A stretch of DNA of 64,000 bases, taken from positions 1,888,001 through 1,952,000 of the forward strand of contig OY762911.1 in assembly GCA_963666565.1 (NCBI GenBank), written 5' to 3'. The translations under genes were made by a program, and so were the position numbers. The notes beneath the pieces were generated by a model. That model did no database searches, had not been told where the DNA came from, and was given only the letters and a program-made list of their open reading frames with translations. Shown in pieces: positions 6,066-20,100 of the stretch (positions are counted from its first letter, which is position 1; each line of letters starts with the position of its first letter). This stretch comes from Thermoanaerobaculia bacterium (GTDB lineage: Bacteria > Acidobacteriota > Thermoanaerobaculia > Multivoradales > Multivoraceae).

Positions 6066-7958
6066 TCAGGCGACGCTCGGGTCCGGCTGCACCGCCACCT
6101 CCCGCACGACGAACGAAGAACGCCCGCTGTTCCTCTCCCACAGGCCGACCGCCAGCCGGTAGGCGCCCGGCGGCAGGACCAGCCCGCTGCGGACGGCGAT
6201 GTACTGGCCCGCGGCCTCTTCGAGTTCGGCGACCGGCACGTTCAGTTCGAAATCCAGGTGCCGGGGCGGCATCCGGCTGCCGTCGGCGCGCTGCACCTGG
6301 AGCACGACGCGGAAGAAGCCGCTGGCGACCGGGTCGCGGGCCGCCCGCGCGGGGACGAGCGCCAGCTCGCCGATCGGCAGGCTGGCGACGACTTCGAGCG
6401 GCGTCCGTTCGGCCGCGGCGGAGCCTTCGGGCGCCGCCGTCCTCCTGACCTGGATCTCCATGCCGTGGTTGTTCTCTTCCCAGCCGAACAGCAGGGTTCC
6501 CCAGGCGCGGCTGGCCAGGTTCTGCTGGATCGTCACCGGCGCGTAGCTCGCCCGGTAGCGGAGCGAGCCGCTCCGGGCTAGAGGCCGCTGCCGCAGCCGC
6601 AGCGCGATCTCGCGGATGCCGGTGTCGCCCATCGACTCCGGCGGCGTGAAGGAGAGGGAGTAGTAGGTCGAGATGTCCGTGCGGGTCGATTGCAGGAACT
6701 CGCCGACGCCCGTGTCGGAGACGAAGGAGAGGCCGCCGGTCAGGCCGGCCAGGCTGTTCAGGCCGGAGCGGACGTTGGACAGCTCGACGATCGAGCCGCG
6801 TTCCCTGGCGCTCTCGCCGAGTTGGCTGATCGCCGGGTCGATGACCGGCGGCTTGAGCGGGTAGAACGTCACGCGGTGGGTGTTCGCGAGCGCCGCCAGT
6901 TGATCGAAGGCGTCCGCGCAGCTCAGTTCGGCGGCCATCGTCTGGAAGGCGAAGGCGCCGCCGTCATCGACCTGGACGATGTTCGTCGCGACGCCCATCC
7001 GGTCGGCCCGGTCGACGCCGAATGGCCGGTGGTTGCGGTCGTTCAGGTCGAGCGAGCCGGGCGCGCTGATCATCTCGTCGCCCTCGAGCTGCCTGGAGGA
7101 GCCCGCGAGGCGGTCGTACATCGTCTTGGCCGCGCTGTCGAGCGGGTGGCGGGGAAGGCCGTCGCTCACGAACAGGATCGCCTTGCGGCCGGGAACGAAG
7201 GCGAGCGCCTCGACCAGCGAACGCACCGCGCCGACGGTCAGCAGCGTGTCCTGGCGCAGGGCCTGGCCGAAGCTCCGCAGGTTCGCCTCCACGCTGGCCA
7301 GGGATGCCTCCCCGAGACGGTAGCGGCTGCCCCTCGCCGCCATCAGCCGCAGCGTCTCCCTCATGGCCAGGGAAGCGGAGCGCTGCTGCGAGCGCAGGGT
7401 CGTCGTCGGGATGTCCCGGTCCATCGCGGCTTCGATCGTCGTCCGCACCGCGGCGCGGTCGCGGGTCGGCGGCAGGAGCGGTTCGAGGCGCTCGCCGAAC
7501 GCTGCCGCCGCCACCCAGGTCGGGTTGGCCGCGATCTCCTCGTCGAGGGCTTCCGCGATCTCGGCCAGGGCCGCGTCGCGGTGCTTCCGCTGCAGGTGGC
7601 GTTCGTCGATGAAGAGGAGGATCGTCAGGCGGCCGGTGACCGTGGTGCGGAGGTCTTCTCCGGCCGCCACGCTCAGAATCTCGACCGGTTCGTTCTCGAC
7701 CTTGAGCTCGAAGTCGTCCTTCGTCAGGCCGGTGACCGGCCGGTCGGAGGAGTCGGTGACGACGGCGTCGAGACTGATCAGCCGGACGTCGATCGACTCG
7801 CGGAGCACGATGTCCTCTCGAATCCGCTCCTGCCGCGGTGGACGGTCCTGCGCTTCGGTCGCTGTGGGGCCCGCGAAGCTGGACGCGGCCGTGAGCGCCA
7901 TGACGGCGGTGGCGGCCAGCAGCCTCGGCGGCCGGCGGTGGCGTGCGGAACCGGTCAA
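6066..7958 (-). CDS. VWA domain protein (Acidobacterial VWFA-related type)
   Basis: Signal peptide; ISLDAVVTDSSDRPVTGLTKDDFEL, PGRKAILFVSDG, LAGLTGG, YYSLSFTP. Confidence 0.85.
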   Translation of the reverse strand: MTGSARHRRPPRLLAATAVMALTAASSFAGPTATEAQDRPPRQERIREDIVLRESIDVRLISLDAVVTDSSDRPVTGLTKDDFELKVENEPVEILSVAAGEDLRTTVTGRLTILLFIDERHLQRKHRDAALAEIAEALDEEIAANPTWVAAAAFGERLEPLLPPTRDRAAVRTTIEAAMDRDIPTTTLRSQQRSASLAMRETLRLMAARGSRYRLGEASLASVEANLRSFGQALRQDTLLTVGAVRSLVEALAFVPGRKAILFVSDGLPRHPLDSAAKTMYDRLAGSSRQLEGDEMISAPGSLDLNDRNHRPFGVDRADRMGVATNIVQVDDGGAFAFQTMAAELSCADAFDQLAALANTHRVTFYPLKPPVIDPAISQLGESARERGSIVELSNVRSGLNSLAGLTGGLSFVSDTGVGEFLQSTRTDISTYYSLSFTPPESMGDTGIREIALRLRQRPLARSGSLRYRASYAPVTIQQNLASRAWGTLLFGWEENNHGMEIQVRRTAAPEGSAAAERTPLEVVASLPIGELALVPARAARDPVASGFFRVVLQVQRADGSRMPPRHLDFELNVPVAELEEAAGQYIAVRSGLVLPPGAYRLAVGLWERNSGRSSFVVREVAVQPDPSVA

Positions 7959-8059
7959 CGGATACCCATGTTAGCGCCGGCAGGTCCGCTCTTCGCGGGA
8001 GGCGGGAGCGGGCGGTCGGGCTGCTATCCTCGCGGTTCCCGATCAGAGGAGGCAGTGTG

Positions 8060-8881
8060 ATGAAGCGGAGTCTCTCGGAACGGACGGTGTTGACGCTGCT
8101 CGCGGCGCTGGTGCTCGCGGCGGCGCCCACTGCGGCGCAGGACGCCGACTACAGGGCGCCGCGCACCCACGACGACAGGCCGGATCTCAACGGGATCTGG
8201 CAGGCGCTGGGCGCGGCCCACTGGGACATCGAACCGCACGCCGCTCGCCACGGTCCGGTGGTCGAGATGGCCGCTCTGGGCGCCGTTCCGGCCGGCCTGG
8301 GCGTGGTCGAAGGCGGAGAGATCCCCTACCTGCCGGAAGCGCTGGAGAAGCGCGACCGGAACCGGGCCGACTGGCTCGCGCTCGACCCGGCGGTCAAGTG
8401 CTACATGCCGGGCATCCCGCGCGCCAACTACATGCCCTTCCCGTTCCAGATCGTCCAGACGCCCGATCACGTCCTGATCGCCTACGAGTTCGCCAGCGCG
8501 AGCCGCGTGATCTACATGAACCGGGAGGGCTTCGAGGCTCCGTTCGACACCTGGATGGGGCACTCGATCGGGCGCTGGGAAGGGGAGACGCTGGTCGTCG
8601 ACGTGACGAGCCAGGTGCCCGATACCTGGCTCGATTCGAGCGGCAACCACCACACGGACGCGATCCACGTCGAGGAACGCTGGACGGCCATGAGCCCGTA
8701 CCACCTCCGGTACGAGGCGACGATCACCGACGAGAACGTCTACAGCCGGCCCTGGAAGATCAGCCTGCCGCTCTACCGACGGGTCGACCCGAACATGCAA
8801 CTGCTCGAGTTCAAGTGCGTCGAGTTCGCCGAGGAACTGATGTACGGTCACCTGCGCAAGGGAGCGGACTCGAGTCCCTGA
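8060..8881 (+). CDS. Conserved secreted hypothetical protein (usual DUF6152 partner)
   Basis: RBS GAGGAGG before ATG 8060; signal peptide; PDLNGIW, DPAVKCYMPGIPR, WMGHSIGRWEGETLVVD, EFKCVE. Confidence 0.85.
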   Translation: MKRSLSERTVLTLLAALVLAAAPTAAQDADYRAPRTHDDRPDLNGIWQALGAAHWDIEPHAARHGPVVEMAALGAVPAGLGVVEGGEIPYLPEALEKRDRNRADWLALDPAVKCYMPGIPRANYMPFPFQIVQTPDHVLIAYEFASASRVIYMNREGFEAPFDTWMGHSIGRWEGETLVVDVTSQVPDTWLDSSGNHHTDAIHVEERWTAMSPYHLRYEATITDENVYSRPWKISLPLYRRVDPNMQLLEFKCVEFAEELMYGHLRKGADSSP

Positions 8882-8914
8882 CCTGCCGGCGCTGGCTAGA
8901 AGAGGAGAACAGCG

Positions 8915-9340
8915 ATGAAGTTCCAGCGAATCGTCCTGACGGCGGCGGCCCTCGCCCTGGCGCTCGCCGTTCCGCTCGCCGCCCATCACGCCTTCTCGGC
9001 CGAGTTCGACGCGGACCGGCCGCTGCAGCTTCGCGGCAAGGTGACGAAGATGGAGTGGATCAACCCCCACGCCTGGATCCACCTGGAGGTCGCGAACGAC
9101 GACGGCACGTTCACCGTCTGGATGGTCGAGGGCGGCACGCCGAACACGCTCGCCCGGCGCGGCTTCACGAAGAGGTCGCTCCTGCCCGGGACGGAGATCG
9201 TCGTCGACGGCTACCAGGCGAAGGACGGCTCGAACAAGGCGAACGGCCGCGACCTGACCTTCCCGGACGGCCGCAAGCTGTTCATGGGTTCCTCCGGCAC
9301 GGGCGCGCCGCGCGACGGCCGGGACCCGACCGAGCAGTAG
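8915..9340 (+). CDS. DUF6152 family protein
   Basis: AHHAFSAEFD...GKVTKMEWINPHAWIHL...WMVEGGTPNTL; RBS GAGGAG. Confidence 0.9.
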   Translation: MKFQRIVLTAAALALALAVPLAAHHAFSAEFDADRPLQLRGKVTKMEWINPHAWIHLEVANDDGTFTVWMVEGGTPNTLARRGFTKRSLLPGTEIVVDGYQAKDGSNKANGRDLTFPDGRKLFMGSSGTGAPRDGRDPTEQ

Positions 9341-9365
9341 CCGCCGCCGGGTGCCCGACCCGCCG

Positions 9366-9437
9366 CTGGGTGCGCGGGTCTCTCTGACCCGCCGCGGCCG
9401 CCGCAGGCGGCCGGAAGCACGCGCCGGCCGGAGGCCG
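9366..9437. repeat. REP-like palindromic element copy
   Basis: CTGGGTGCGCGGGTCTCTCTGACCCGC...GCCGCCGCAGGCGGC, matching the dispersed family in this window. Confidence 0.75.
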
Positions 9438-9479
9438 CATCCGCCTTCGGCGCCGGATGAGGGGTTGGCGCCGGGCCTT

Positions 9480-9612
9480 GTTGGTCGCCATGCACAGTGG
9501 GCACGAAACGCCCTGCCTATTCGCCGCGCGCGGGGAGCGACCCAGCGCGGTGTGTCGACTGTTGTATTCGGCAGGAGACCCGGCTCGCAGGCCCACTGCG
9601 TTGACAACCAAC
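9480..9612 (-). ncRNA. Putative structured ncRNA, copy 1 (133 nt, family unknown)
   Basis: 5' GUUGGUUGUCA pairs with 3' UGGCGACCAAC, CGCAGUGGGC with GCCCACUGUG, CCUGCC with GGCAGG; apical GGG-UCGCU-CCC. G-U pairs favour the minus strand. Homologous to 14091-14226. Confidence 0.75.
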
Positions 9613-9618
9613 GGCGGG

Positions 9619-9648
9619 AAGCTACCGTGCGGGTCGCTGGCGCGTCAA
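9619..9648 (-). promoter_or_regulatory. Sigma70-type promoter for ncRNA copy 1
   Basis: TTGACG (9648-9643)-N18-TAGCTT (9624-9619)-N6-G at the first base of the closing stem. Confidence 0.7.
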
Positions 9649-9733
9649 ACCGGCTTCGCCCGCGGCGCGGCGTCTCCGCGGCGCGCGGCTCGGCGGCGTT
9701 TTCCGGTTGCCGGCCGGCCGGGCGCCATGGAGA

Positions 9734-10507
9734 CTACGGCGTCGGGATCAGGCTGGCCACGCCGGCCAGGGCGGCCAGGAAGGCCGTTGTCGCCGCCCAG
9801 AGGGTGCCGGCGATCAGAAAGCCCTTGCGTTCGGAAAGCCGAAACACGGCGGCGGCGCCGAGGCCGAGCAGAGCGACATGCCAGACGGTGAAGGGCGTGA
9901 TCCTCATCAGGACCGCTTCGAGCGCCCAGTTCCCGGTGGGAAACAGCAGGTTCAGGCCCGGCACGATCACCGCGTCCGCCAGTTCGGTGGGCGATGCGAT
10001 CCCCTCCGGGCCGCGGCCGCGCGAGAGCAGCGCGCTGACCAGACCGCCGAGCCACGCAACGACGCCTAGATGGACGGCGAGCGAGAAGGACTGTCCGAAG
10101 CTCCCTTCACCGCGGAACGCCGTTACCAGCAGCCAGACGACGAGCGCCTGGAAGAGCCAGGCGCCGATCAGGCTGAAGAGCCCGAACACGGTTCCCCCCA
10201 CGAGGATCACCGCGTTCAGACCGGGAAGCGCGTCGGCCATGTCCGCGAGAAGCGGTTCATCCGACACGCTTGGCCATGTCGCGAGGAACTGGACGGCGCT
10301 CAGGGCGAGGAGCAGCGCCGCGGCGCCGGCCCAGGGTCGATGCTCGCGGACGATCGCGAAGCTGCTTCGAGGGGAGACGACGATCCCGGCCAGGACCTTG
10401 AACCATGCCTGCCGCTCGGTTTCGGCGCCGCCGGCGTATGCGATCGGCTCGGCGCTTTCCGGACGGACGGCGGCTTCCTCTTCCATGCGCGTCGGATCCT
10501 CCACCAT
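9734..10507 (-). CDS. Yip1 family membrane protein
   Basis: LAGIVVSPRSSFAIVREHRPW, about 5 TM, ITPFTVWHVALLGLG; RBS AGGAGG before ATG 10507. Confidence 0.8.
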   Translation of the reverse strand: MVEDPTRMEEEAAVRPESAEPIAYAGGAETERQAWFKVLAGIVVSPRSSFAIVREHRPWAGAAALLLALSAVQFLATWPSVSDEPLLADMADALPGLNAVILVGGTVFGLFSLIGAWLFQALVVWLLVTAFRGEGSFGQSFSLAVHLGVVAWLGGLVSALLSRGRGPEGIASPTELADAVIVPGLNLLFPTGNWALEAVLMRITPFTVWHVALLGLGAAAVFRLSERKGFLIAGTLWAATTAFLAALAGVASLIPTP

Positions 10508-10778
10508 GACGATTCCTCCTGCCTGCCGGCGGCCTCGCTCACCGACACGGTGACGGCGGTGGCGGCCGGCGCGCCGACCCCGGTCCATCGACCGGTTCTC
10601 GATCCGCGGACCATACTGGCACAGGGGCGACGGCGGACGGGCCGCCGGGCGCCGGCACGCCGGCGGCGGCCCGTCGACCGCCGTCGACGTGGAGCGCGCC
10701 TGATCGAAGCGAGCGCTCCGGCCTCTTCACCAGGGAGCGCGAAGGTCCGTCGTTGCCGCCATGCCGGTTCCGGTTCGG

Positions 10779-11558
10779 TTACGCCGGCAGGAGTCGGGAC
10801 GCCGTGGCGACCGACGCCGCGGCGAAGGCCGTCGTTGCCGCCCAGTAGACGGCCGCGAGCAACCAGCCCTTGCGCCGGGGCAGCTCGAACACCTGGGCCG
10901 CCCCTACGGCGAGCAGTACGACGAACCAGATCGTGAAGGGGTTGACGCTGGCGTAGAAGACGTTGAGGGCCGCGTTCTCGCCGGCCAGCAGCAGGTCGAG
11001 GCCCATCTGCGCCTGCAGGTCCAGCGGCGACCGGATCGCTTCGAACCCGCGGAGGTGGAGGAGGAGGAAGTTGGTCCAGTCCTTGACGTGAAGGACCAGA
11101 GCCAGATGGACCGTCAACGAGAGGGACTGGGCAAAGCGGAGTTGCCCCTGGAGCGCGATTGCCAGCAGCCAGACGAAAACCGTCTTGAGGACGAGTCCGA
11201 TGGCGAGGACCAGCGGGCCGGCTGCCATCGCCAGCCAGCGCGCCGCTCCGGCTGTCCGCTCGACCTGCGCCATCATGAGGTCGACCTGCTCCGGGCTGTC
11301 CGGCATCGTCTCCGTCAGTTGAGCCCGCGTCGCGTGGTTGTTCAGTGGCGCCGAGGCCGAGGCCAGGGCGGCGGTACCCGCCGCGAGCACAAGGAACGGC
11401 GCCAGCCACGGGCGGCGGCGGTGGATGACCTCGAAGCTCCGTCGGGGCGACGCGAAGATGCCGACCAGCGCCTCGAGCCATGCGTGCCGGCCTGGCGAGT
11501 CTTCGCCGCCGGTCTCGGCATGGCCTTCACCTTCGATGCTGCCGAAGCGCCCAGTCAT
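10779..11558 (-). CDS. Yip1 family membrane protein (paralog)
   Basis: LVGIFASPRRSFEVIHRRRPWLAP, VNPFTIWFVVLLAVG; ATGA overlap with the ABC ATPase stop. Confidence 0.82.
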   Translation of the reverse strand: MTGRFGSIEGEGHAETGGEDSPGRHAWLEALVGIFASPRRSFEVIHRRRPWLAPFLVLAAGTAALASASAPLNNHATRAQLTETMPDSPEQVDLMMAQVERTAGAARWLAMAAGPLVLAIGLVLKTVFVWLLAIALQGQLRFAQSLSLTVHLALVLHVKDWTNFLLLHLRGFEAIRSPLDLQAQMGLDLLLAGENAALNVFYASVNPFTIWFVVLLAVGAAQVFELPRRKGWLLAAVYWAATTAFAAASVATASRLLPA

Positions 11559-12340
11559 TCCGTGCTCCTGTTCCCGATCCAGGAGAGGCGGGAGAACCTC
11601 TCGCGTCTGGAGATGCCGAGAATGAGGTTCTCAAGCCGCCCGGCGCCGTCGTCTCCTTCGGCGGCCGGCAGTTCGCGGAATTCCTCGCGGGAGCACGACA
11701 GGAGGACCTTGCCGGCCCTGATGACGGCGATGTGGGTCGACACGCGCTCGACGTAGTCGAGCATGTGGGAGGTCAGGAAGACGGCCGTGCCCTGGTCGGC
11801 CATCTGCTGCAGGATCGACATGACGGTGCGCGCGCTCAGGGCGTCCATCCCCTCGAACGGCTCGTCGAGGAACAGGACCCTGGGCGCGTGGAGGGTCGCC
11901 GCCGCCAGACGGATCTTCTTCCTCATGCCGTGAGAGTAGGTCGTGATCGGCCGCTTGCCGGCTTCTTCCAGGTCGAAAACCGTGAGCGCCTCGTCCGTCC
12001 GCTGCCCGGCGTCCTCGCGGCTCAGGCCGTAGATCCGGGCGTACGAGAGCAGCAGCTCTTCGCCGGTCAGGCTCTCGAACAGGACGCTGTGGTCCGGCAC
12101 GATGCCGAGTTGCCGCTTGAGTTCCGCGTCGTTTACGTCCACCGGCTTACCGAGAAGCCGTACCGTGCCCTTCGTGGGCGTCACGACTCCGGTCAGCATC
12201 GACCAGGTCGTCGTCTTGCCGGCGCCGTTGGGGCCGACGAAGCCCAGAATCTGCCCCTCCCGGACCTCCAGGTCGACGCCGTCGACGACGACGTTGCCCC
12301 CGTAGGACCGGGTCAGGTTCTCTGCCTTGATTGCTTCCAT
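11555..12340 (-). CDS. ABC transporter ATP-binding protein (exporter type)
   Basis: Walker A GPNGAGKTT, signature YSHGMRKK, Walker B LFLDEP, H-loop LTSH; RBS AAAGGAA before ATG 12340. Confidence 0.95.
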   Translation of the reverse strand: MEAIKAENLTRSYGGNVVVDGVDLEVREGQILGFVGPNGAGKTTTWSMLTGVVTPTKGTVRLLGKPVDVNDAELKRQLGIVPDHSVLFESLTGEELLLSYARIYGLSREDAGQRTDEALTVFDLEEAGKRPITTYSHGMRKKIRLAAATLHAPRVLFLDEPFEGMDALSARTVMSILQQMADQGTAVFLTSHMLDYVERVSTHIAVIRAGKVLLSCSREEFRELPAAEGDDGAGRLENLILGISRRERFSRLSWIGNRSTE

Positions 12341-12432
12341 GCGTGGTTGTGTTCCTTTTGGTCGTAAGGGGCAGAAGATGTGTAGGGGCGGGAGACACAA
12401 GGGGCGGGGGCCAGCTGGTGCGGAGGGTTCAG

Positions 12433-14024
12433 CTAGTGCGGAGGGTCCTTGAGCAGGAGTTCGTGCGTCCGCGACTCGATTTCGCGCCGTTGGCGCGCCG
12501 TCGACGGTCGCCACGCCAGGGCCGAAAACGTGAGAGCGACGCCGGCGGCGATCGTGGCCATGAGCCCTCCGTTCCCGGGTCGCTCCAGTATCCGCGAGAC
12601 CAGGATCGCGAGTACGAGGAACGCCATTATGGGGAGGGTGGCGACAAAGCTCACCCCCAGGTTCTCTACCTCGAACTCCGTGGCGCCTCCGATCCTGCGC
12701 TTGGGCCAGTACAGTTGAACCAGGCCGTAGACCGCGTCGGCGACCAGCAAAAGGGCGGCGACCAGGGTTACAGCCAGAACTGAGAGTGTCCAGTTGCCCG
12801 GGCCGAAGTGAGCCAAACCGACGCCTGTCGCCAGAACGACGACCGGGATCGCCAGCAGCGCAGGTGCCCTGGCCGGTGCCCGAAAGATACGGAACGGCCT
12901 TAGCGGCAATGCGAGGGACTCACGCCAGACCTGGCAACTCGGAGGCGGTTTCTCGGTCCGAACGCCGTTGAGGAGGATGACCGTTACCAGAGCGGCGGTC
13001 ATCAGGCCGAGTACAGGGTCGACGGTGGTGTAGGTGGCGTACGCGAGGCAGATGACGTAGCACCATCTGACCCCCTTGGCGCGACATAGGCACTCGAGTT
13101 CGACGAGTGTCAGACAAGCGCCCGGCGACAACCGGCGACAACGGCGCAGGAGTCCCGCCAGGGCGTAACCGTCGAGGCCGTCCGCCGGTCTCCACCCGGG
13201 CGAGAGAGGAATTGGCGGAGCAGGAGTCGGTACTCGATCCAGGCGGTCGCCGCGAGAAGACACAGCAGAACTCCCAGTCGCAGGATGTTCGGTGCGAGCG
13301 CCCCGGGCGAGTCGATGATGGCGGCGAGGAGACCGGTAGGGGTGTAGCCCAGCGCGACGAGAACCTCCGCGTCGCGGACCGAAGCGGCGACCGCTTCGAG
13401 CTCGGCCTCGCCGTCCAGGACGCCGATGCCGACGCGGAGGGCCTGAATCGCCGCGACGATCAGGATGAACAGGCCGACCAGGCCGATCGTGCTTTCGACC
13501 AGCCGGTCCACGGTCAGGATGAGAATCGCTCCAAGCCGCCCGAGCAGCAGTGCCGTGGCTGCCAGACCGACGGTCGCCAGCAGGAAATCGACCAGCCCCT
13601 GGGGTCGGGTCGCGAGCAGGTAAAGCGCCGCGGGTCCGAGCCCGATCAACCAGTAGCCAGCCAGACTGAACCCGAGCCGCAGCATGTAGAGGTCCCTGTA
13701 GGCGGCTGGGAGCGGGAGGAACGGCTCTATGTCCAGGAGCCAGTTCACCGGAAGGCGCAGGACCACCTGGGCCAGCAACCACAGGAGAGTTGCAACGCCG
13801 GTGGCGAGGTTCAGCAGGTTGCGGCGTAGCGGTTCGTCCTCGATGCCGAAGAGAAGGGAGAGCAGCGGCACCGTCGCGGCAGTGGCAACGACAAGGTAGA
13901 TCAGGGCGATGCCGACGGCAACGACTTGCGTCTGATCGCGTCGCTTCAGGGCGCCGGGAAGAGCTAGCCTACCCAGTGTCAGCAGCAGGTCCGCCCGGCT
14001 TCCGGGCTTCGTCAGTACGGCCAT
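12433..14024 (-). pseudogene. ABC exporter permease-like membrane protein split by a single-base frameshift (real, or an assembly error)
   Basis: The N half (14024-13110 ORF) and C half (end of the 13782-12433 ORF) both align to the intact paralog 2186-3799. Adding one base to the G run at 13161-13163 restores TPLAGLLRR (paralog LPLAWILRR). Confidence 0.8.
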
Positions 14025-14090
14025 TGGATCCTCGTGTCGCGGCGTCCAGTTCTGGAAGGCGGGCAGGCGCCTGGACTGGCGGCGGGCCCG

Positions 14091-14226
14091 GCTGGTTGCG
14101 GAGCACAGAGGGAACGAGACCCCCCGCCGCCTCGCCTGACGAAGGGAGCGACCCTAGGTCCCGGGGCGACGGCCAAGTCCGGCAGGGGATCCGAGTAGCG
14201 GGCCCACTGCGCCTTTGGCAACCAAC
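14091..14226 (-). ncRNA. Putative structured ncRNA, copy 2 (136 nt)
   Basis: GUUGGUUGC/GCAACCAGC, 13-bp GGAUCCCCUGCCG/CGGCGGGGGGUCU, apical GGG-UCGCU-CCC. Collinear with 9480-9612 apart from one 3-nt indel. Confidence 0.75.
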
Positions 14227-14232
14227 GGACGG

Positions 14233-14262
14233 ACGCTAGCGCGCCGGAGTGGCGTCCGTCAA
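14233..14262 (-). promoter_or_regulatory. Sigma70-type promoter for ncRNA copy 2 and possibly the transporter genes
   Basis: TTGACG (14262-14257)-N18-TAGCGT (14238-14233)-N6-G, the same geometry as 9619-9648. Confidence 0.7.
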
Positions 14263-14401
14263 ACGCACTTGCCCCGTAGAACGGGAGAGGAACGATGGCC
14301 CCGAAGGAGCCGCGTGAGATCGACCCGCTGACGGGTGCTTCGGTCTCCTTCGTTGCCATCGAAGCCTCTCCACGGTGTTCTACGGTGGTTGAATACCCGG
14401 C

Positions 14402-14695
14402 CTACTTGCAGAAGACCAGGGCAATTGGCGCGTACGCTCCGCCGATGGCGAGACCGGCGCCGCCGGTTGCGGCGCCAACACCGAGGGCGACGAAACTGAA
14501 GCCGAGGACGGCGGTGATGCACCCCAACTTCCCTCCTCCGGTGGTTGCCGCGAGAAGCGGTTCACTGGCGCGCTCGATCTCGGCCGGGGTACCGAAGTCC
14601 GGGATCCCAAGGCGAGAACCGTTGTCGCCCACCGCTGGAGCGAGAGCGAACACGAAGGTGAGGAGAAGGGTTGCGGCTACTGCTTTCTTGGACAT
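14402..14695 (-). CDS. Bacteriocin-like precursor C: Sec signal + GG-type leader + 43-aa hydrophobic two-Cys core
   Basis: MSKKAVAATLLLTFVFALAPAVG signal; DFG...ASEPLLAATTGG|GKLGCITAVLGFSFVALGVGAATGGAGLAIGGAYAPIALVFCK; RBS GAAAGGAA. Confidence 0.78.
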   Translation of the reverse strand: MSKKAVAATLLLTFVFALAPAVGDNGSRLGIPDFGTPAEIERASEPLLAATTGGGKLGCITAVLGFSFVALGVGAATGGAGLAIGGAYAPIALVFCK

Positions 14696-14767
14696 GTCGT
14701 TCCTTTCAGGTTTGGTTCAGAGTGTGTCGGTTGTTGGGTTGGGTTCTTCAGGACAGGCGGATCGCGG

Positions 14768-15103
14768 TCAGGCGAACATCGCGCAGGCGACTCCGACGAC
14801 GCCGAGGCCGATGCCGACAGGCGCCAGGACGCCGCTCAGGGCCAGGGCCAGGCCGGCTCCCGCGGCGGCGCCGCAGGTCGCCTCGACCGCCGGCCCCGAA
14901 CCCGTGGTCAGGGCAAGGCCCTCGGCGCTCATGCGATGCTGGCCGAAGTCCGTGACGCGCGACGGAGGCGACGCCGTCTGCACGGCATGGTCTCCGGCGG
15001 TGCCGAGTCGATCAGCTGTCTGGTCGACCGGGCTGTCCGGTTGACCGGCAGATGCGGCCATCAGTGCGCCGCACGTGAGAATGGAAAGAAGAGTCTTCGT
15101 CAT
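14768..15103 (-). CDS. Bacteriocin-like precursor B: Sec signal + GG-type leader + 42-aa hydrophobic two-Cys core
   Basis: MTKTLLSILTCGALMAASA signal; DFG...MSAEGLALTTGS|GPAVEATCGAAAGAGLALALSGVLAPVGIGLGVVGVACAMFA; RBS AAAAGGAG. Confidence 0.78.
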   Translation of the reverse strand: MTKTLLSILTCGALMAASAGQPDSPVDQTADRLGTAGDHAVQTASPPSRVTDFGQHRMSAEGLALTTGSGPAVEATCGAAAGAGLALALSGVLAPVGIGLGVVGVACAMFA

Positions 15104-15163
15104 GGGTGGTGCTCCTTTTCTTCGATTGGTTTTGTTTTCGGAAGAGATCGCAACTGCGCCGAG

Positions 15164-15484
15164 CTAGAACGGCACCGGACAGGGGAACGGGATCGGGAAC
15201 GGAGTCGGTAGCGGCATGGGCAGGGGAGGCCTGGGCCACGGGATCGGCATCGGACAGCCGGGCTGCGGAATGCAGCCGCAGGGCCAGTAGACGGCCAGTT
15301 CGACGTGTTCCGGCGCGATGTCCAATGCGCCGAGCGCGTAGCCGGCCGGCGCCTCGAACGACTCGAGATCCCATCCGGCCGCGAGTTCGTCGCCGCCGGA
15401 AACCGGCGCTTCGCCGGTGGTCGGGGTCGCCATCGCCGCGCCGGCGAGGAAGAGGGTTGCAAGGAAGGCGATGCGGTACTTCAT
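15164..15484 (-). CDS. Secreted precursor A: signal + acidic pro-region + Pro/Cys-rich C-terminal peptide
   Basis: MKYRIAFLATLFLAGAAMA signal; tail WPCGCIPQPGCPMPIPWPRPPLPMPLPTPFPIPFPCPVPF; RBS GAAGGAG; ATGA overlap with the C39 stop. Confidence 0.8.
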   Translation of the reverse strand: MKYRIAFLATLFLAGAAMATPTTGEAPVSGGDELAAGWDLESFEAPAGYALGALDIAPEHVELAVYWPCGCIPQPGCPMPIPWPRPPLPMPLPTPFPIPFPCPVPF

Positions 15485-16101
15485 TGTGGGTTTGCTCCTT
15501 CAGGAGTTGTGGGTTGTGGTGAAACGGACGGCGTTCCCGCCGTCCGCGAGATCGGTGAGGGGCCGCCGGTGAAGGCGAGGACGATGCCGTCCCAGGAGCG
15601 GTCGAACGTTCGTGGGCTCATCCGCAGGCGGCCGATGGACGGATCGTCGACGACGAGTTCGTCGCCGGCGGTGCGGATGACGACGAAGTGGTCGCCGTGG
15701 ACGTGGGCGATCGCCGGGAGCGGAATCTCGCCGAGGCGGTCGATCGGCAGGTGGAAGCCCTGGCTCGTCACGCCCCGCCGCTCGGCGGCTCGCTTGATCG
15801 CCAGAAGGCTGGTGCCGTCCGGTCCGGTTCCGGTGGCGGCTTCGAGTTCGGCGAGCGTCGAGTCGCCGACGCCCCAGTGGTCGAGGACCATCTTCAGCGC
15901 GGCCGGTCCGCAGTCGGTACGGTTCTGCTGGCGAACGACCTCGCCCTCGGCCGACGCCGACGGGTCGAGCGACGCGGCCCAGGCGAGCCGGTCGATCGTC
16001 GGTCCGACGGCCCGGACCGCGACCGTCGCGAGGCCGGCCGCGAGCACCAGGCCGGCGGCGGCGATGTGCCGCCGGCGAACCCTGAGTCGCTCAGCGCGCA
16101 T
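15481..16101 (-). CDS. Stand-alone C39 family cysteine peptidase with N-terminal signal/TM anchor
   Basis: QQNRTDCGPAALKMVL (catalytic Cys), GTSLLAIKRAAERRG, LPAIAHVHGDHFVV (His), VDDPSIG (Asp), WDGIVL. No ABC domains. Confidence 0.92.
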   Translation of the reverse strand: MRAERLRVRRRHIAAAGLVLAAGLATVAVRAVGPTIDRLAWAASLDPSASAEGEVVRQQNRTDCGPAALKMVLDHWGVGDSTLAELEAATGTGPDGTSLLAIKRAAERRGVTSQGFHLPIDRLGEIPLPAIAHVHGDHFVVIRTAGDELVVDDPSIGRLRMSPRTFDRSWDGIVLAFTGGPSPISRTAGTPSVSPQPTTPEGANPQ

Positions 16102-16597
16102 CGTTCGCGGCCTCCAGAAAGGAACGCCACGCGGTTTCCGGGCGTTCTCCGGTGACGACGGCGCGGACCCGGGACCGCCCGTCTACCAGGAACACGAGCG
16201 GTACGTGGATGACGCCGAAGCGCCTGGAGAGGGCGGCGTCCGGGTCGGCGACGGTGTGGGCGATGCCATCGACCTTCGGCGCTTCCTGGCCGGCCCCGGC
16301 GACGACCGCGATGAGATCGAAGGACTCGCCCCCGACCTGCGCCATGCGCCGCAGCGTCGTGATCGTGCGGTCGCAGTTGCCGCAGCCGGCCCTGGCGAAG
16401 ACGACGACCCGCGGCCGTTCTCGGGAGACCGGCAGGAGTTCGCCGTCCGCGAGTCCGGGCAGGGCCGGGAACGCCGCGCCGACCTTGGGGCGCTGAGCCT
16501 CTCGCGCGGCCAGGCTGGACTGGAACCAGATCAGGCCACCGACCGGGACGGCGACGGCGACGACGACCGCGGCGGCGGCCAGCCGGCGACGGTTCAT
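16091..16597 (-). CDS. Membrane-anchored thioredoxin-like/redoxin (CxxC) protein
   Basis: N-terminal TM; PKVGAAFPAL, VVVFARAGCGNC, VADPDAALSRRFGVIHVPLVFLVD. Confidence 0.85.
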   Translation of the reverse strand: MNRRRLAAAAVVVAVAVPVGGLIWFQSSLAAREAQRPKVGAAFPALPGLADGELLPVSRERPRVVVFARAGCGNCDRTITTLRRMAQVGGESFDLIAVVAGAGQEAPKVDGIAHTVADPDAALSRRFGVIHVPLVFLVDGRSRVRAVVTGERPETAWRSFLEAANDAR

Positions 16598-16917
16598 CGT
16601 CCGCGCCCCTGGCCGAGGCCGGCCGCTCCGGCGCGCGTTCCCGGCCGCGCCGGGGCGTAGAGCATGGAGACGAGCGGCGCGGACCGCGGCCCCAGCAGGC
16701 GGAAGGCGCGCGTCAGGCGCGCTTCGAGTGCCCCGGCCGGCGACTCGGAGAGCCGGGGGTTCCAGCCGCGCACCCGGGGGCGGGCGCGCCGCCCGGCCCC
16801 GGCCTGGATCGAGGCGGCGCCGAGCGGATTCGGAACGTTGCCGGCGGCGTCCGGCCTGTCGAGACGGGGCCGCGAGGCAGGTTGACGGAGAGTCGAGGCA
16901 AGGTTCGGGGAGGTCAT
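16594..16917 (-). CDS. Hypothetical protein, probable first gene of the peptide operon
   Basis: RBS GGAG before ATG and ATGA coupling to the redoxin start. No recognisable motif. Confidence 0.4.
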   Translation of the reverse strand: MTSPNLASTLRQPASRPRLDRPDAAGNVPNPLGAASIQAGAGRRARPRVRGWNPRLSESPAGALEARLTRAFRLLGPRSAPLVSMLYAPARPGTRAGAAGLGQGRGR

Positions 16918-16993
16918 TGTCCGCTCCAGGTGCTTCAGTCGAGGTCGGCGCCGTTGGAGTTCGGCTGCCGCGTGTATCGACTAAGACGCAAAT

Positions 16994-17027
16994 GGCCTCC
17001 GGAACCCGGTATCGGGTTCCGGAGGCC
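16994..17027 (-). terminator. Perfect 15-bp inverted repeat; probable terminator of the SNF2 gene, or an operator
   Basis: GGCCTCCGGAACCCG-gtat-CGGGTTCCGGAGGCC, followed by ATTT on the minus strand. Confidence 0.5.
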
Positions 17028-17103
17028 CTCTGGAGGCCGGCGGGCTTCTACCGTTCGCGCAGTGCTCGGCGGGTCAGAAAACCCGCGTACCCGGCGCCCG
17101 GCG

Positions 17104-20100
17104 TCAGCTCAGCAGCAGGCGCAGATCGTCGGCGGTGAGATCCCGCAGGGACGATCCGCCGCCTTCGAGGATCGCGTCGGCGATCTGCCGCTTCGAGCGC
17201 TGGAGTTCCAGCATCTTCTCTTCCACGGTGTCGCGGGCGATCAGGCGGTAGGCGAAGACAGGCTGGGTCTGGCCGATGCGGTGGGTGCGGTCGATGGCCT
17301 GCGCCTCCACCGCCGGGTTCCACCACGGATCGAGCAGGAAGACGTAGCCGGCCGCGGTCAGGTTCAGGCCGACGCCGCCCGCCTTCAGGCTGATCAGGAA
17401 GAGGTTCGTGTCCGGGTCGTTCTGGAAGAGGTCCACCACCTCGCCGCGGTTCCGGGTCTGCCCGTCGAGGTAGGCGTACGGGACGCCCCGCTCTTCCAGG
17501 TGGCGCCGGACGTAGGCCAGCAGCGACGTGAACTGCGAGAACACGAGGCACTTGTGCCCCTCGGCGAGCACCTCCGACACCTGCTCGAAGAGCGATTCGA
17601 GCTTGGCGCTGCCGGCCTCGTTCCAGGACTCGTCGATCAGCCCCGGGTGGCAGGCGACCTGGCGCAGGCGGAGCAGCGCCTCCAACACCTGCATGGCCGA
17701 GCCGCCGACTCCCTTCTCTTCCACCTGCTGCAGCAGGCTGTCGCGGTAGCCGGCCCGGAGCTGGTCGTAGATCTCCTGCTGCTTCGGGTTCAGGGTGCAC
17801 TGCAGGATCTGCTCGGTCTTCTCCGGCAGGTCCGGGAGCACTTCCCGCTTGCTGCGGCGGAGGATGAAGGGCCGCAGACCCTTGGCGACGAGGGCGAGCT
17901 CCTGCTCGCTCGGCGCCCGGCCGCCGGCCAGCACGTCGAGCGCCGGCAGCCGGCCGAGCAGGCCCGGGTTGAGGAACTCGAAGATCGAGCCGAGTTCGCC
18001 CAGGTGGTTCTCGATCGGCGTACCGGTCAGCGCCAGCCGGTGCTTGCCGGTCAGCAGGCGACAGGCCTTGGCCGTCTGCGAGGCCGCGTTCTTGATCGCC
18101 TGCGCCTCGTCGAGGATGACGGTGTCGAAGTCGACCGTCGCCAGGTAGCCGATGTCGCGGCGCACGGTGCCGTAGGTCGTGACGACCAGGTCGGCGGAGG
18201 CGATGTCGCCGCGCAGGTCCTCGCGGTCCCGGCCGGCGTACTCCAGCACCTTGAGGTCCGGCGTGAAGCGGGCGGCCTCGTCGATCCAGTTGTAGACGAG
18301 GCTGCGCGGCGCGACGACGAGGTAGGGCAGCTTCGTCGTCCGCGAGGCGGTGCGGTACATGCGGAGCAGCGCCAGGGCCTGGATCGTCTTGCCCAGCCCC
18401 ATGTCGTCGGCGAGCACGCCGCCGAGGCCGAACTCGCGCAGGAAGCACAGCCAGCCCAGGCCGAGCCGCTGGTAGGCGCGGAGCGCGCCGACGAAGCTGC
18501 GCGGCTCCTTCTTCGGCTTGATCGAGGAGAACGTGCTCAGCTTCTCGCGCAGCTCGGCGAAGGTCTTGCTGACGTTCACCGGCGGCGTCACCGCCAGCAG
18601 CGCGTCGACCAGCAGGGCCTGCGAGGGCAGGAAGCGGAGCCCCTCCTCGCTCGCGGCCTGCGCCAGTTGGCTGAGCGAGCCGTAGTTCTCCACCCAGGCC
18701 GCCGGCAGCAGGCCCTTCGAGCCGTCGTCCAGCTCGACCGAACGGCGGCCTTCCGAGATCGCCGACAGGATCTCCGAGAACTCGATGCGGTCCTCGCCGA
18801 AGTCGATCTGGCCGCTCAGCTCGAACCAGTCGACGCCGCTCTCGATGCGCAGCGCCGGCGGGCTGGGGGGCCGAATCGAAGCGCCGTGGGCCTGTACCTC
18901 CCAGCCCTCGGCGAGCAGCGGTTCGGCGACCGCCGGCAGGTCGCGCGGTTCCAGTTCCAGACCGTGGCCGGTCTTGGACGCGACCGGCTTCAGGCCGAGC
19001 TCGAGCAGGCGGACGAGCGCCGCCTGCTCGACCTCCAGGTCGCGCCGGACGAAGCGGTGCTCCTCCCAGTCGACCACCGCCGAACGCGGGTCGCCGGCGT
19101 CGACGGTCAGGCTGTCGTAGCCGAAGCTGAGCCGGGCCTCGAGCTGGGGGTTCATCCACTCCGGCGCGTCCTCCGGCTCCAACGCCAGGCGCGGCTGCGG
19201 CGCCGGGGACTCCTCCGAGAGGTAGACCTCTTCCGGCAGCTCCAGCGGCGGCAGGGCGGGCAGTTCCAGCAGGCTCGTCACCGCCGCTTCCAGGTCCTCG
19301 TCCGGGATGACCAGGTCGCCGCTGGCGCCGAGCAGGGAGTACCAGGGCTGGTCGCGCCTCGGCTCGAGGTGGAGCCGGCAGATCGAGTCGTCGAGCAGCA
19401 GCAGCGTGTTGCCGGTCTCCTCCGCGCGGGCGCCGGGCGCGACGCCGTTGCCGGCCGGGAACGGCAGCACGAGGGCCGCGCGGCTGAGCGGCGCCGTCTC
19501 GTCGCCGCGCTTGAGCAGACCGCGGAGCCGGACGCGGCTTGCCGCCGCGAGCTCCAGTTGCAGCGTGAGACGCCAGGGAGCGCCTTCGTCGAAGGTCACC
19601 GGTTGCTGTCCGGCCAGGGAGCGGCCGTCCCACCAGAAGAGGCGGCCGCTTGCGCTGAGGCGCGGCAGCAGGCGATCGACCCAGTTCAGCGGCACGAAGA
19701 CCCGCTGGATTCGGGGTCGCGCCGGCGGGCGGCCGCGGCCGGCCTTGCGCTTGCGCCCCTGGCGTTGCGGCGCCTCCGGCGGCAGCGCGGTGATCATCGC
19801 CGGCGTCGCCGCCGCGGACGCGCCGTTCGTCGACGGGTCGCCGGCGTCGAGGGACTCCGGACCGAGCAGTTCCTCCAGCTTCGCGTGGTCGAGGTTGAGC
19901 CGCTTCATCTTGCCGAACTCGCCCTGCGGATTCCGCCTGCGGCCGAAGATGTCGATCATCAGGCCGCCGGCGTTGCGGCTCGTCGCGGCGTTGATGAGCA
20001 GCCGGATCTCGGGTTCGCCGTGCCTTGCCGAAACCGGCTTCGCGGGCTGGTCCTGCTGCTCGATGTTCTCGAGGACCGAGTCGACGACCGAGCGCCAGCT

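Follow-up and report, generated by a model that had tools for sequence, protein, structure and literature searches.

We analyzed a 64,000-nucleotide stretch of the genome of a Thermoanaerobaculia bacterium (phylum Acidobacteriota; GenBank assembly GCA_963666565.1, contig OY762911.1, positions 1,888,001 to 1,952,000), referred to here as the window, which has a G+C content of 70% and is part of a single-contig genome of 4.79 Mb. Between positions 9463 and 16917 the window carries a gene cluster that lies on the minus strand throughout and starts downstream of an SNF2 helicase gene. The cluster comprises, in this sequence, a small open reading frame (ORF; hyp107), a thioredoxin-fold protein (the redoxin), a C39 peptidase, three short signal-peptide ORFs (sp106, sp111 and sp97), an ABC permease, an ABC ATPase and two Yip1/YknW-like membrane proteins (A, or YipA, and B). 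Family assignments were made by Pfam and NCBIfam matches. An earlier reading of the same DNA, made from the letters without database searches (the sequence-only reading), had described a co-oriented and partly translationally coupled run of these genes. It had proposed that bacteriocin-like precursors leave the cell by Sec and are matured outside the cytoplasm by the peptidase and the redoxin, while the ABC and Yip1 proteins protect the producer. We found the same strand and gene order, and the coupling is visible as ATGA overlaps at three junctions (hyp107/redoxin, C39/sp106 and ABC ATPase/YipA) and as an 11-nt overlap between the redoxin and C39 genes. As set out below, the genes and their recurrence in other bacteria point to a pathway in which double-glycine peptides would be exported first and cut later.

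The peptidase gene (15481-16101) encodes a stand-alone C39 cysteine peptidase of 206 amino acids (aa). PF03412 is its only domain (E = 1.4e-29), an ABC domain is missing, and the gene is the sole PF03412 match in the 4.79 Mb genome. The protein consists of an Arg-rich N-terminal stretch, one hydrophobic helix (residues 13-29) and the peptidase domain (approximately residues 54-178). It matches LahT150 (6mpz, 6.9e-13) and PCAT1, a peptidase-containing ABC transporter (PCAT); Gln58, Cys64, His138 and Asp153 align to LahT150/PCAT1 and are invariant in 13 diverse stand-alone homologues. Transporter models matched at 81.6 bits (TIGR03796; cut-off 853) and 49 bits (TIGR01193; cut-off 524). An anchored C39 protein with intact Cys, His and Asp residues and no ABC domain is what had been read from the letters. 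As to the side of the membrane on which it would act, more Lys and Arg residues lie N-terminal of the anchor in 11 of the 13 diverse homologues and in 22 of 30 distant ones, and the helix of the window protein is flanked by six such residues on the N-terminal side versus two on the C-terminal side. These counts predict that the N-terminus is inside and the peptidase domain in the periplasm, and not the cytoplasmic location that the sequence-only reading had named as a counter-argument to its own proposal. Here and below, Sec export and topology were judged by hydropathy, by the presence of AXA-like sites and from charge counts.

The redoxin (16091-16597; 168 aa) has an N-terminal hydrophobic anchor and a C72-G-N-C75 motif. 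It matches Pfam Thioredoxin_2 (E = 3.2e-6; 27.9 bits, cut-off 27) and, weakly, the NCBIfam models MauD, DsbE and ResA, in line with the CxxC redoxin noted before; a PDB sequence search with it found no solved relative. The CGNC motif is kept in 38 of 43 redoxin copies of the genus. The thioredoxin partners of distant stand-alone C39 genes match AhpC-TSA/Redoxin; their motif is CPHC, as in DsbA, in 6 of 16 cases and CSHC in 3 of 16. Although the Lys and Arg count around the redoxin anchor is neutral (3 versus 3), we predict that the protein faces the periplasm; as a TlpA/ResA/DsbE-like family member with CxxC it would be in place on the oxidising side.

Three short ORFs follow the peptidase gene: sp106 (15164-15484), sp111 (14768-15103) and sp97 (14402-14695). 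Each has a ribosome-binding site (RBS) of the GGAG/AGGA type (GGAG, AAGGAG and AAGGAA, respectively) and a positively charged, hydrophobic, AXA-like N-terminus, and each is coding-like in having more G+C at third than at second codon positions (GC3 > GC2), which agrees with the earlier description of three signal-peptide ORFs with strong RBSs. The double-glycine (GG) leaders that had been ascribed to the precursors as a group are present in sp111 and sp97 and absent from sp106, whose C-terminal part is Pro/Phe/Trp-rich and contains four Cys; a Pro-rich signal-peptide ORF occupies the same position in 30 of 37 genus loci. In sp111, a signal peptide (approximately residues 1-20) and a pro-region ending in M58-SAEGLALTTG-S69 precede a Gly/Ala-rich hydrophobic core with Cys77 and Cys107, and LSxxxLxxxxG(A/S/T) and then xxDF.C...C.(M/L)F is the register common to its relatives. 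In sp97, the signal peptide spans approximately residues 1-23, the pro-region ends in E45-PLLAATTG53-G54 and the core of 43 aa contains Cys59 and Cys96. When seven sp97 orthologues were aligned, only M1, K4, L47, L48, G53, C59, A62, G65, A83, G86, A87, P90, V94 and C96 were invariant; the Gly at -2 and the Leu at -7/-8 of the leader motif are among the invariant positions. Both precursors display the same design: a region of 30-50 residues ends in a double-glycine-type motif, beyond which lies a hydrophobic core rich in Gly and Ala; one Cys stands 4-8 residues into this core and the other 2-5 residues before its end. Searches of Pfam and NCBIfam with sp106, sp111 and sp97 at E ≤ 0.1 returned chance-level matches only and no curated bacteriocin family.

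For a census of peptides in the genus we used 40 loci (the window and 39 others); in three of them the contig stops short of the permease, which left 37 for analysis. A peptide had to combine a signal-like N-terminus with a leader motif and a core of 25-65 aa with Cys near both ends. By this strict rule we counted 63 peptides with the motif LSxxELxxIxG(G/A/S), and 35 of the 37 loci encode at least one of them. A further 19 signal-peptide ORFs are mostly looser variants of the same design. The peptides are hypervariable, far more so than the enzymes, and one signal/leader module occurs on different cores. Leader-only peptides of 55-61 aa, which have a classical GG leader at the N-terminus and lack a signal peptide (e.g. 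...LIANLPEAGLATVTGG, with a core containing two Cys) sit between the Pro-rich ORF and the next peptide gene in loci L044-L047, L050, L053-L055, L057 and L060; their first residues resemble those of signal-bearing peptides of other loci.

We also predicted the complex of the C39 protein (residues 45-185) with sp97 (residues 24-97), alongside three controls. The ipSAE score was 0.42, compared with 0.00 for the best of the three controls. The mark applied to this score is reached by 58 of 80 solved complexes and by 2 of 110 mismatched pairs, and 7 of the 80 as well as both mismatches lie at ≤ 0.60. The runs shared at least 66% of contacts, and the partner pLDDT was 46. The prediction weakly supports binding of sp97 by the C39 protein, and it may reflect likeness to solved complexes instead, because C39-substrate complexes have been solved (PCAT1 PDB entries).

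Each of the 24 other genus genomes contains the C39 gene. All 12 primary genus loci that were fetched carry SNF2, the small ORF, redoxin, C39, small ORFs, permease, ABC and Yip1 in that order, with the permease sometimes duplicated. Paralogous loci also exist; two of four contain the set of redoxin, C39, peptides, Yip1, permease and ABC a second time, with 44-56% identity. In a wider sample of the order, C39 matches lay in frames of 739-1051 aa, a transporter-fused length, in 10 of 16 genera. Among 201 genomes sampled across the phylum, 55 had a C39 match, a tally that includes the unpublished genome G221 with one transporter-length match; the stronger matches were mostly of transporter length, and a few lay in short frames in which the match extends over the N-terminal anchor as well.

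Beyond the genus, a pattern scan with one genome per species yielded 80 loci, 29 of them with stand-alone C39 genes (175-312 aa) and six with ordinary PCATs. The stand-alone genes belong to Ignavibacteria, Bacteroidota, Poribacteria, Planctomycetota, Latescibacterota, Aminicenantia, other Acidobacteriota and one 'Eubacteriales' metagenome-assembled genome. Their neighbours were called with hidden Markov models built from the genus proteins, and several of these loci end at contig ends. In the 29 stand-alone loci, a thioredoxin lies directly upstream in 13, Yip1 within approximately 4-5 kb downstream in 14 and a DrrA-like ABC gene in 10. Of the 21 distant loci inspected, 19 have, right behind C39, an ORF whose product starts signal-like and continues with a GG motif (such as L-S-A-G-Q-L-S-Y-A-V-G-G or L-D-S-N-E-M-Q-Q-I-S-G-G) and a hydrophobic core that contains Cys. 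When a profile was searched against 1.84 billion representatives, 149 of the 150 best proteins were no longer than 345 aa, and 277 reached E ≤ 1e-30; the stand-alone form is the rule in this C39 family. Co-occurrence of these genes elsewhere, which the sequence-only reading had called for, is thus seen both in the gene order kept in 12 of 12 primary loci and in the recurrence of such genes in other phyla.

Two observations concern single groups of loci. In the relatives L083 and L084 a paralogous stand-alone C39 gene is preceded by an ABC/AAA-like ORF of 1613-1635 aa and not by a thioredoxin. In L089, L096, L108, L109, L113-L115 and L119, which come from Bacteroidota and Ignavibacteria, a conserved exported protein of 160-185 aa without a Pfam family is encoded between the GG peptide and Yip1, and these distant versions of the system may use it for immunity or as an accessory factor.

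High-GC DNA gives many spurious ORFs and no family model matches the small ORFs, so the possibility arises that these are non-genic or encode unrelated secreted proteins, while C39 and the redoxin act elsewhere. However, the small ORFs have RBSs and GC3 > GC2, their Cys and Gly positions are kept despite high divergence, and the peptides recur in 35 of 37 genus loci and directly after C39 in 19 of 21 distant ones. We regard a merely fortuitous adjacency as highly improbable.

Downstream of the peptides lie the permease (12433-14024), the ABC ATPase (11555-12340) and the genes of the Yip1/YknW-like proteins A (10779-11558; 259 aa) and B (9734-10588; 284 aa). In the window the permease is split between two frames and is one base short in a C/G run (13153-13163). 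The frame is intact (528-537 aa) in six of six relatives, and contigs from four of four public sequencing runs, which represent at most three samples of one study and possibly the source sample itself, have one extra G after 13160 that restores a frame of 530 aa. We conclude that the break stems from a homopolymer error of the assembly and that the gene itself is unbroken. A permease pseudogene, which we had considered, is ruled out by this extra G in the contigs of all four runs. Other apparent frameshifts in the single-contig genome may likewise be homopolymer errors. The permease has no Pfam family; its nearest ESM Atlas clusters (scores 0.96-0.97) carry 12TM_1, ABC_export, DUF5687 or ABC_tran_2, which we take only as a lead towards an ABC-2-type permease with 12 transmembrane (TM) segments. 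The ATPase, with its start taken at M-EAIKAENL, matches ABC_tran (3.3e-29) and is 79-93% identical across the primary genus loci. Its best model is DrrA and not MacB (TIGR01188 drrA, 7.9e-64, below the model cut-off). PF04893 matches proteins A and B at 40.1 and 57.2 bits, respectively (cut-off 28.6), and the only NCBIfam match of both is NF052650 YknW_fam at 65.6 and 69.6 bits (cut-off 110). The pairing of Yip1 with ABC genes, which adjoin one another in the window with an ATGA overlap, recurs in distant loci. The ATPase and the two Yip1 genes had thus been named correctly, and so had the permease, which is however one gene of 530 aa once the assembly error is mended.

In the genus the C39 gene is always accompanied by an ABC permease and ATPase, and the genome holds no other C39 or PCAT. 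One may therefore think of a split PCAT, in which a cytoplasmic C39 reads GG leaders, the permease and ATPase export the peptides and the hydrophobic N-termini are part of a long leader. Its main support comes from the 10 of 37 genus loci that hold a leader-only GG peptide. Yet nearly all precursors begin with an n-h-c signal and AXA-like sites, the charges around the single helix of the peptidase speak for a domain in the periplasm (11 of 13 and 22 of 30 homologues), and the thioredoxin next to it is anchored, belongs to the periplasmic TlpA/ResA/DsbA type and has CPHC in distant loci. Moreover, the ATPase is of the DrrA/ABC-2 type whereas PCATs are of the ABC-B type, the ABC operon has its own promoter and leader, and several distant loci have Yip1 and no ABC. 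A split PCAT seems improbable to us.

The promoter of the permease operon is sigma-70-like (14233-14262, TTGACG-18 nt-TAGCGT) with conserved hexamers, and it is followed by IG1 (14074-14230), a structured 5' leader RNA of approximately 157 nt defined by a consensus fold and located directly upstream of the permease start codon. A second promoter and leader, IG2 (9463-9648; TTGACG at 9643-9648, TAGCTT at 9619-9624, leader at 9463-9616), was recognized by its likeness to IG1, to which it is 70% identical. In all 24 aligned copies of IG1/IG2, GTTTGACG is invariant and TAnnnT is conserved, the former being followed after 18 nt by TAGCGT, TAGCTT or TAACTT. Across 11 of the 12 primary genus loci, IG1/IG2 keep an identity of 75-92% (IG2 80-92%), above that of many flanking proteins. 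The transcribed part adopts a five-helix fold closed by its 5' and 3' ends, with a consensus energy of -38.4 kcal/mol on the operon strand versus -21.9 on the opposite strand. In this fold 98.7% of cells pair, compared with 39-52% when the partners are slid. After diverged copies had been added, 21 of 31 pairs change on both sides, as do 9 of 9 pairs of helix 1, in an alignment that was fitted to the model. An Rfam cmscan of 8500-18000 at E ≤ 1 found no family for IG1/IG2 and only a chance microRNA match elsewhere. A simple promoter and terminator scan of 9200-17200 found no promoter by its rule and one weak terminator-like site, which lies on the other strand inside IG2; the IG1 promoter was missed because its -10 hexamer is too weak for the rule. 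An ORF of 115 aa (14012-14359) that overlaps IG1 was rejected as a gene, as GC2 and GC3 are about equal, gaps between IG2 and IG1 are 1-3 nt long and the region folds as RNA.

A covariance model of the leader found it in 40 of 41 genomes of the genus; 15 genomes from 12 other genera of the family gave no match, and the paralogous peptide loci lack the element. The same model also picked up weaker full-length copies elsewhere. A second model gave three further matches in 150 other genomes of the phylum (71, 48 and 35 bits). The diverged copies have their own sigma-70-like hexamers at the same distance (e.g. TTGACA-N17-TACACT) and are then followed by a short hairpin, a Shine-Dalgarno (SD) sequence and the ATG of a gene, which mostly encodes an exported protein such as an M48-PDZ lipoprotein and in one case a LuxR-like regulator. 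In the relative L016, IG2 precedes the SD sequence and ATG of a secreted protein of 366 aa; what lies downstream of it in the window is just a repeat and a convergent gene. We interpret IG1 as the promoter and leader of the permease/ABC/Yip1 operon because of its position, hexamers and fold and because copies elsewhere precede an SD sequence and ATG. IG2 is orphaned in this genome; in relatives it belongs to a neighbouring gene and not to the system. The two noncoding RNAs of the sequence-only reading are accordingly real, conserved, structured and paralogous, although they are 5' leaders with promoters and the second of them lies outside the system. The leader is a candidate new cis-regulator with good covariation support.

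Some genomes carry several identical extra copies of the leader (G066 holds nine leader-model matches), and IS1595-like genes lie 1.5-3 kb away, so we considered that the copies are RNA of an insertion sequence or another mobile element. Every copy, however, stands directly before an SD sequence and ATG, which is a better fit to a leader, and the leader may travel on mobile DNA together with its gene. The extra copies near transposase ORFs, which we take to be IS1595-like from their N-terminal sequence, are those of L037, L038, L040, L042 and L043. In the genome from which the window is taken, a third copy, which is diverged, lies outside the window (G000:C1:2246505-2246668, plus strand; L036 4006-4169; 47.6 bits with R1 and 96.2 bits with R2) and precedes genes for a LuxR/GerE-like regulator of 219 aa and an exported protein of 920 aa, and a partial match is found at C1:921761-921842.

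As for the borders of the cluster, hyp107 (16594-16917; 107 aa) is a small Arg-rich ORF without a Pfam or NCBIfam match. A tblastn search recovered its core, RLSxPPAxALEARLxRAFRMLGARSAPLVSML, in 31 of 39 genus loci with in-frame gaps, its GC3 is 0.86, and it is probably a real gene. At the other end, just downstream of IG2, a GC-rich element of 40-58 nt (9400-9456) that recurs at approximately 90 other sites of the genome with 78-96% identity looks like an intergenic repeat of the REP (repetitive extragenic palindromic) type. It is followed by two convergent genes on the plus strand (7943-9340), encoding an exported protein of 312 aa and a DUF6152 protein. The former shares 36% identity over 105 residues with the protein encoded behind IG2, on the cluster strand, in L016, and the region has undergone rearrangement among relatives. 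PADLOC returned only generic ATPase matches on the cluster.

The genes, motifs, catalytic residues, synteny and cross-phylum co-occurrence described so far are established, and from here on we infer how the parts might work together. The precursors (sp111, sp97 and their variable relatives) would leave the cytoplasm via Sec, and signal peptidase would remove the N-terminal signal peptide. This would leave a pro-region of 30-50 residues ending in the double-glycine motif LSxxELxxIxG(G/A/S), behind which the C39 peptidase, anchored on the outer face of the inner membrane, would cut. The co-translated anchored thioredoxin would make or proof-read a disulfide between the N-terminal-side and the C-terminal-side Cys of the core. 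The permease, the ABC ATPase and the two Yip1/YknW proteins would clear the peptide from the producer membrane and thus confer immunity and possibly release. Their genes would be transcribed as a unit of their own, from a separate promoter and with a structured 5' leader RNA. We consider it probable that the cluster works by Sec export, periplasmic C39 cleavage, disulfide formation and ABC/Yip1 self-protection, and that its products are membrane-active peptides of the class II bacteriocin or microcin type. An antimicrobial role is suggested by the design of the peptides, their hypervariability and the protection-type genes. In its outline this agrees with the sequence-only reading, which synteny, co-occurrence and predicted topology support. 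A link to circular bacteriocins that had been drawn from the Yip1 and ABC genes fell away, as no circularisation-type genes were recognized and the two-Cys cores suit a disulfide. RiPP (ribosomally synthesized and post-translationally modified peptide), the label used at that time, fits loosely, the sole tailoring genes being those of a protease and a thiol-disulfide oxidoreductase.

Several points weigh against this interpretation. The cluster has no component for outer-membrane export or release. As noted, sp106 lacks a GG motif and with it the proposed processing site. In ten of the 37 genus loci, the window not among them, there is a gene for a peptide of 57 aa that begins with a plain GG leader and lacks a signal peptide; in these genomes no PCAT was matched by the genus C39 query, and such leader-only peptides would need another route to a periplasmic C39, by N-tail insertion or through the ABC system. 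The CGNC motif of the redoxin does not by itself tell an oxidase from a reductase. Sec export and topology are deduced from hydropathy, AXA-like sites and charge counts, the complex prediction adds weak support, and the peptides, the permease and the C39 protein lie below or outside all curated bacteriocin, FapD and FilB models. Finally, all of the evidence is computational.

The same maturation route could also serve products that are not antimicrobial, such as signalling peptides, membrane modulators or subunits of surface or periplasmic assemblies resembling the Fap or Fil systems. The sole published C39 peptidase found to be active in the periplasm, FapD of the Pseudomonas Fap amyloid system, serves amyloid secretion, and its substrate is still given as unknown in that paper (PMC5557850). 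FapD is also the closest NCBIfam stand-alone model of our C39 protein, together with FilB, and the cluster contains neither an outer-membrane export gene nor a small dedicated immunity gene. These matches are nevertheless far below the cut-offs (FapD NF058616, 44.8 bits versus 330, 8.9e-12; FilB NF050078, 23 bits versus 475, 4.4e-5), and Pfam and NCBIfam revealed no FapF-like, usher or fibre-repeat protein. At approximately 35-45 residues the cores are short; they are hydrophobic, rich in Gly and Ala, contain two Cys and are hypervariable among close relatives while the enzymes are conserved, as is typical of bacteriocin loci. In addition, the pairing of Yip1 with ABC proteins has a precedent in toxin protection: the combination of a Yip1 protein and an ABC transporter in YknWXYZ is reported to protect Bacillus from the SDP peptide toxin (PMC4887032). 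A non-antimicrobial product is an unlikely outcome, though one to which we assign a real share of the probability.

The antimicrobial interpretation can be widened, with some reserve, to a large cross-phylum class of 'export first, cut later' peptides. We tentatively suggest that in this class the GG pro-peptide could have ceased to serve as an export signal and could be a periplasmic safety catch, so that a membrane-active peptide stays inert until it is released and stapled by an anchored C39 peptidase and its DsbA-like partner; in the genus, a riboswitch-like leader, also found before other envelope-protein genes, could switch the ABC/Yip1 operon. If true, this would be a second and mechanistically different use of the double-glycine motif. 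It would also provide concrete substrates for the poorly understood exported C39 peptidases and a genome-mining rule (anchored stand-alone C39, thioredoxin and a peptide with signal and GG motif) for diderm phyla with few bacteriocins. Within a literature search that extended to openly accessible papers without their supplements, we found no paper on peptides with a Sec signal and GG motif accompanied by an exported C39 peptidase and thioredoxin. On stand-alone or periplasmic C39 proteins, the Fap paper was the only one among the matches listed, and a separate search found no paper that joins C39, Yip1 and bacteriocins.

Several known systems share features with the cluster. Bufferins are MNIO-modified RiPPs whose precursors carry Sec signal peptides (PMC12452194). 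They resemble the peptides described here in that signal; they differ entirely in their enzymes, which are MNIO oxidases, and are not known to have a GG motif or a C39 peptidase. YknWXYZ likewise pairs a Yip1-family protein with an ABC ATPase in the context of a peptide toxin. In our cluster, however, YknW_fam is matched below its cut-off, a MacB-type YknZ and a YknX fusion protein are missing, and the permease is a 12-TM orphan.

FapD and FilB, the latter from the Acinetobacter Fil pilus locus, are stand-alone C39 enzymes with an export signal; the protein described here likewise stands alone, with a predicted N-terminal export signal or anchor. The layout of the cluster fits the inside-out version of the PCAT pathway that the sequence-only reading had put forward as a novelty, yet a C39 peptidase active in the periplasm had already been published with FapD (PMC5557850). 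Unlike in the Fap and Fil systems, the equivalog cut-offs are missed, none of the 10 cluster proteins was recognized as a Fap or Fil protein, fibre subunits and a FapF-like channel are absent, and the adjoining genes encode short hypervariable hydrophobic peptides, a thioredoxin and Yip1/ABC proteins.

Class II microcins and class II bacteriocins with a GG leader, such as MccV, are not known to have a Sec signal; a PCAT cuts and exports them, with CvaA and TolC in the case of microcins. The predicted peptides are similar to them in being small, Gly-rich and hydrophobic, in having disulfides as their only modification and a GG leader, and in being encoded in variable multi-peptide loci. They differ in their Sec signal and in that no Pfam or NCBIfam bacteriocin model matches. 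Sec-dependent class II bacteriocins of the enterocin P type have an ordinary signal peptide and are not known to have a pro-peptide or to need a C39 peptidase. They share the export by signal peptide with our precursors, in which, in contrast, a GG pro-region lies between signal and core.

Double-glycine leaders are textbook cytoplasmic signals that are read by transporter-fused C39 domains. In such PCATs, also known as ABC-transporter maturation and secretion (AMS) proteins (PCAT1, LahT, ComA and CvaB), the Gln, Cys, His and Asp residues are those of our peptidase, and a LSxxELxxIxGG motif likewise stands before a Gly-rich, Cys-containing core. There, however, the peptidase is fused to an ABC-B exporter and the motif is N-terminal, whereas here a peptidase of 206 aa stands alone, is membrane-anchored and is predicted to be periplasmic, and the motif follows a Sec-type signal peptide. 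Here, too, an ABC-2/DrrA ATPase is accompanied by a separate 12-TM permease, and the thioredoxin gene overlaps the peptidase gene. By analogy, the system would be the PCAT pathway turned inside out, yet without the fusion that defines it.

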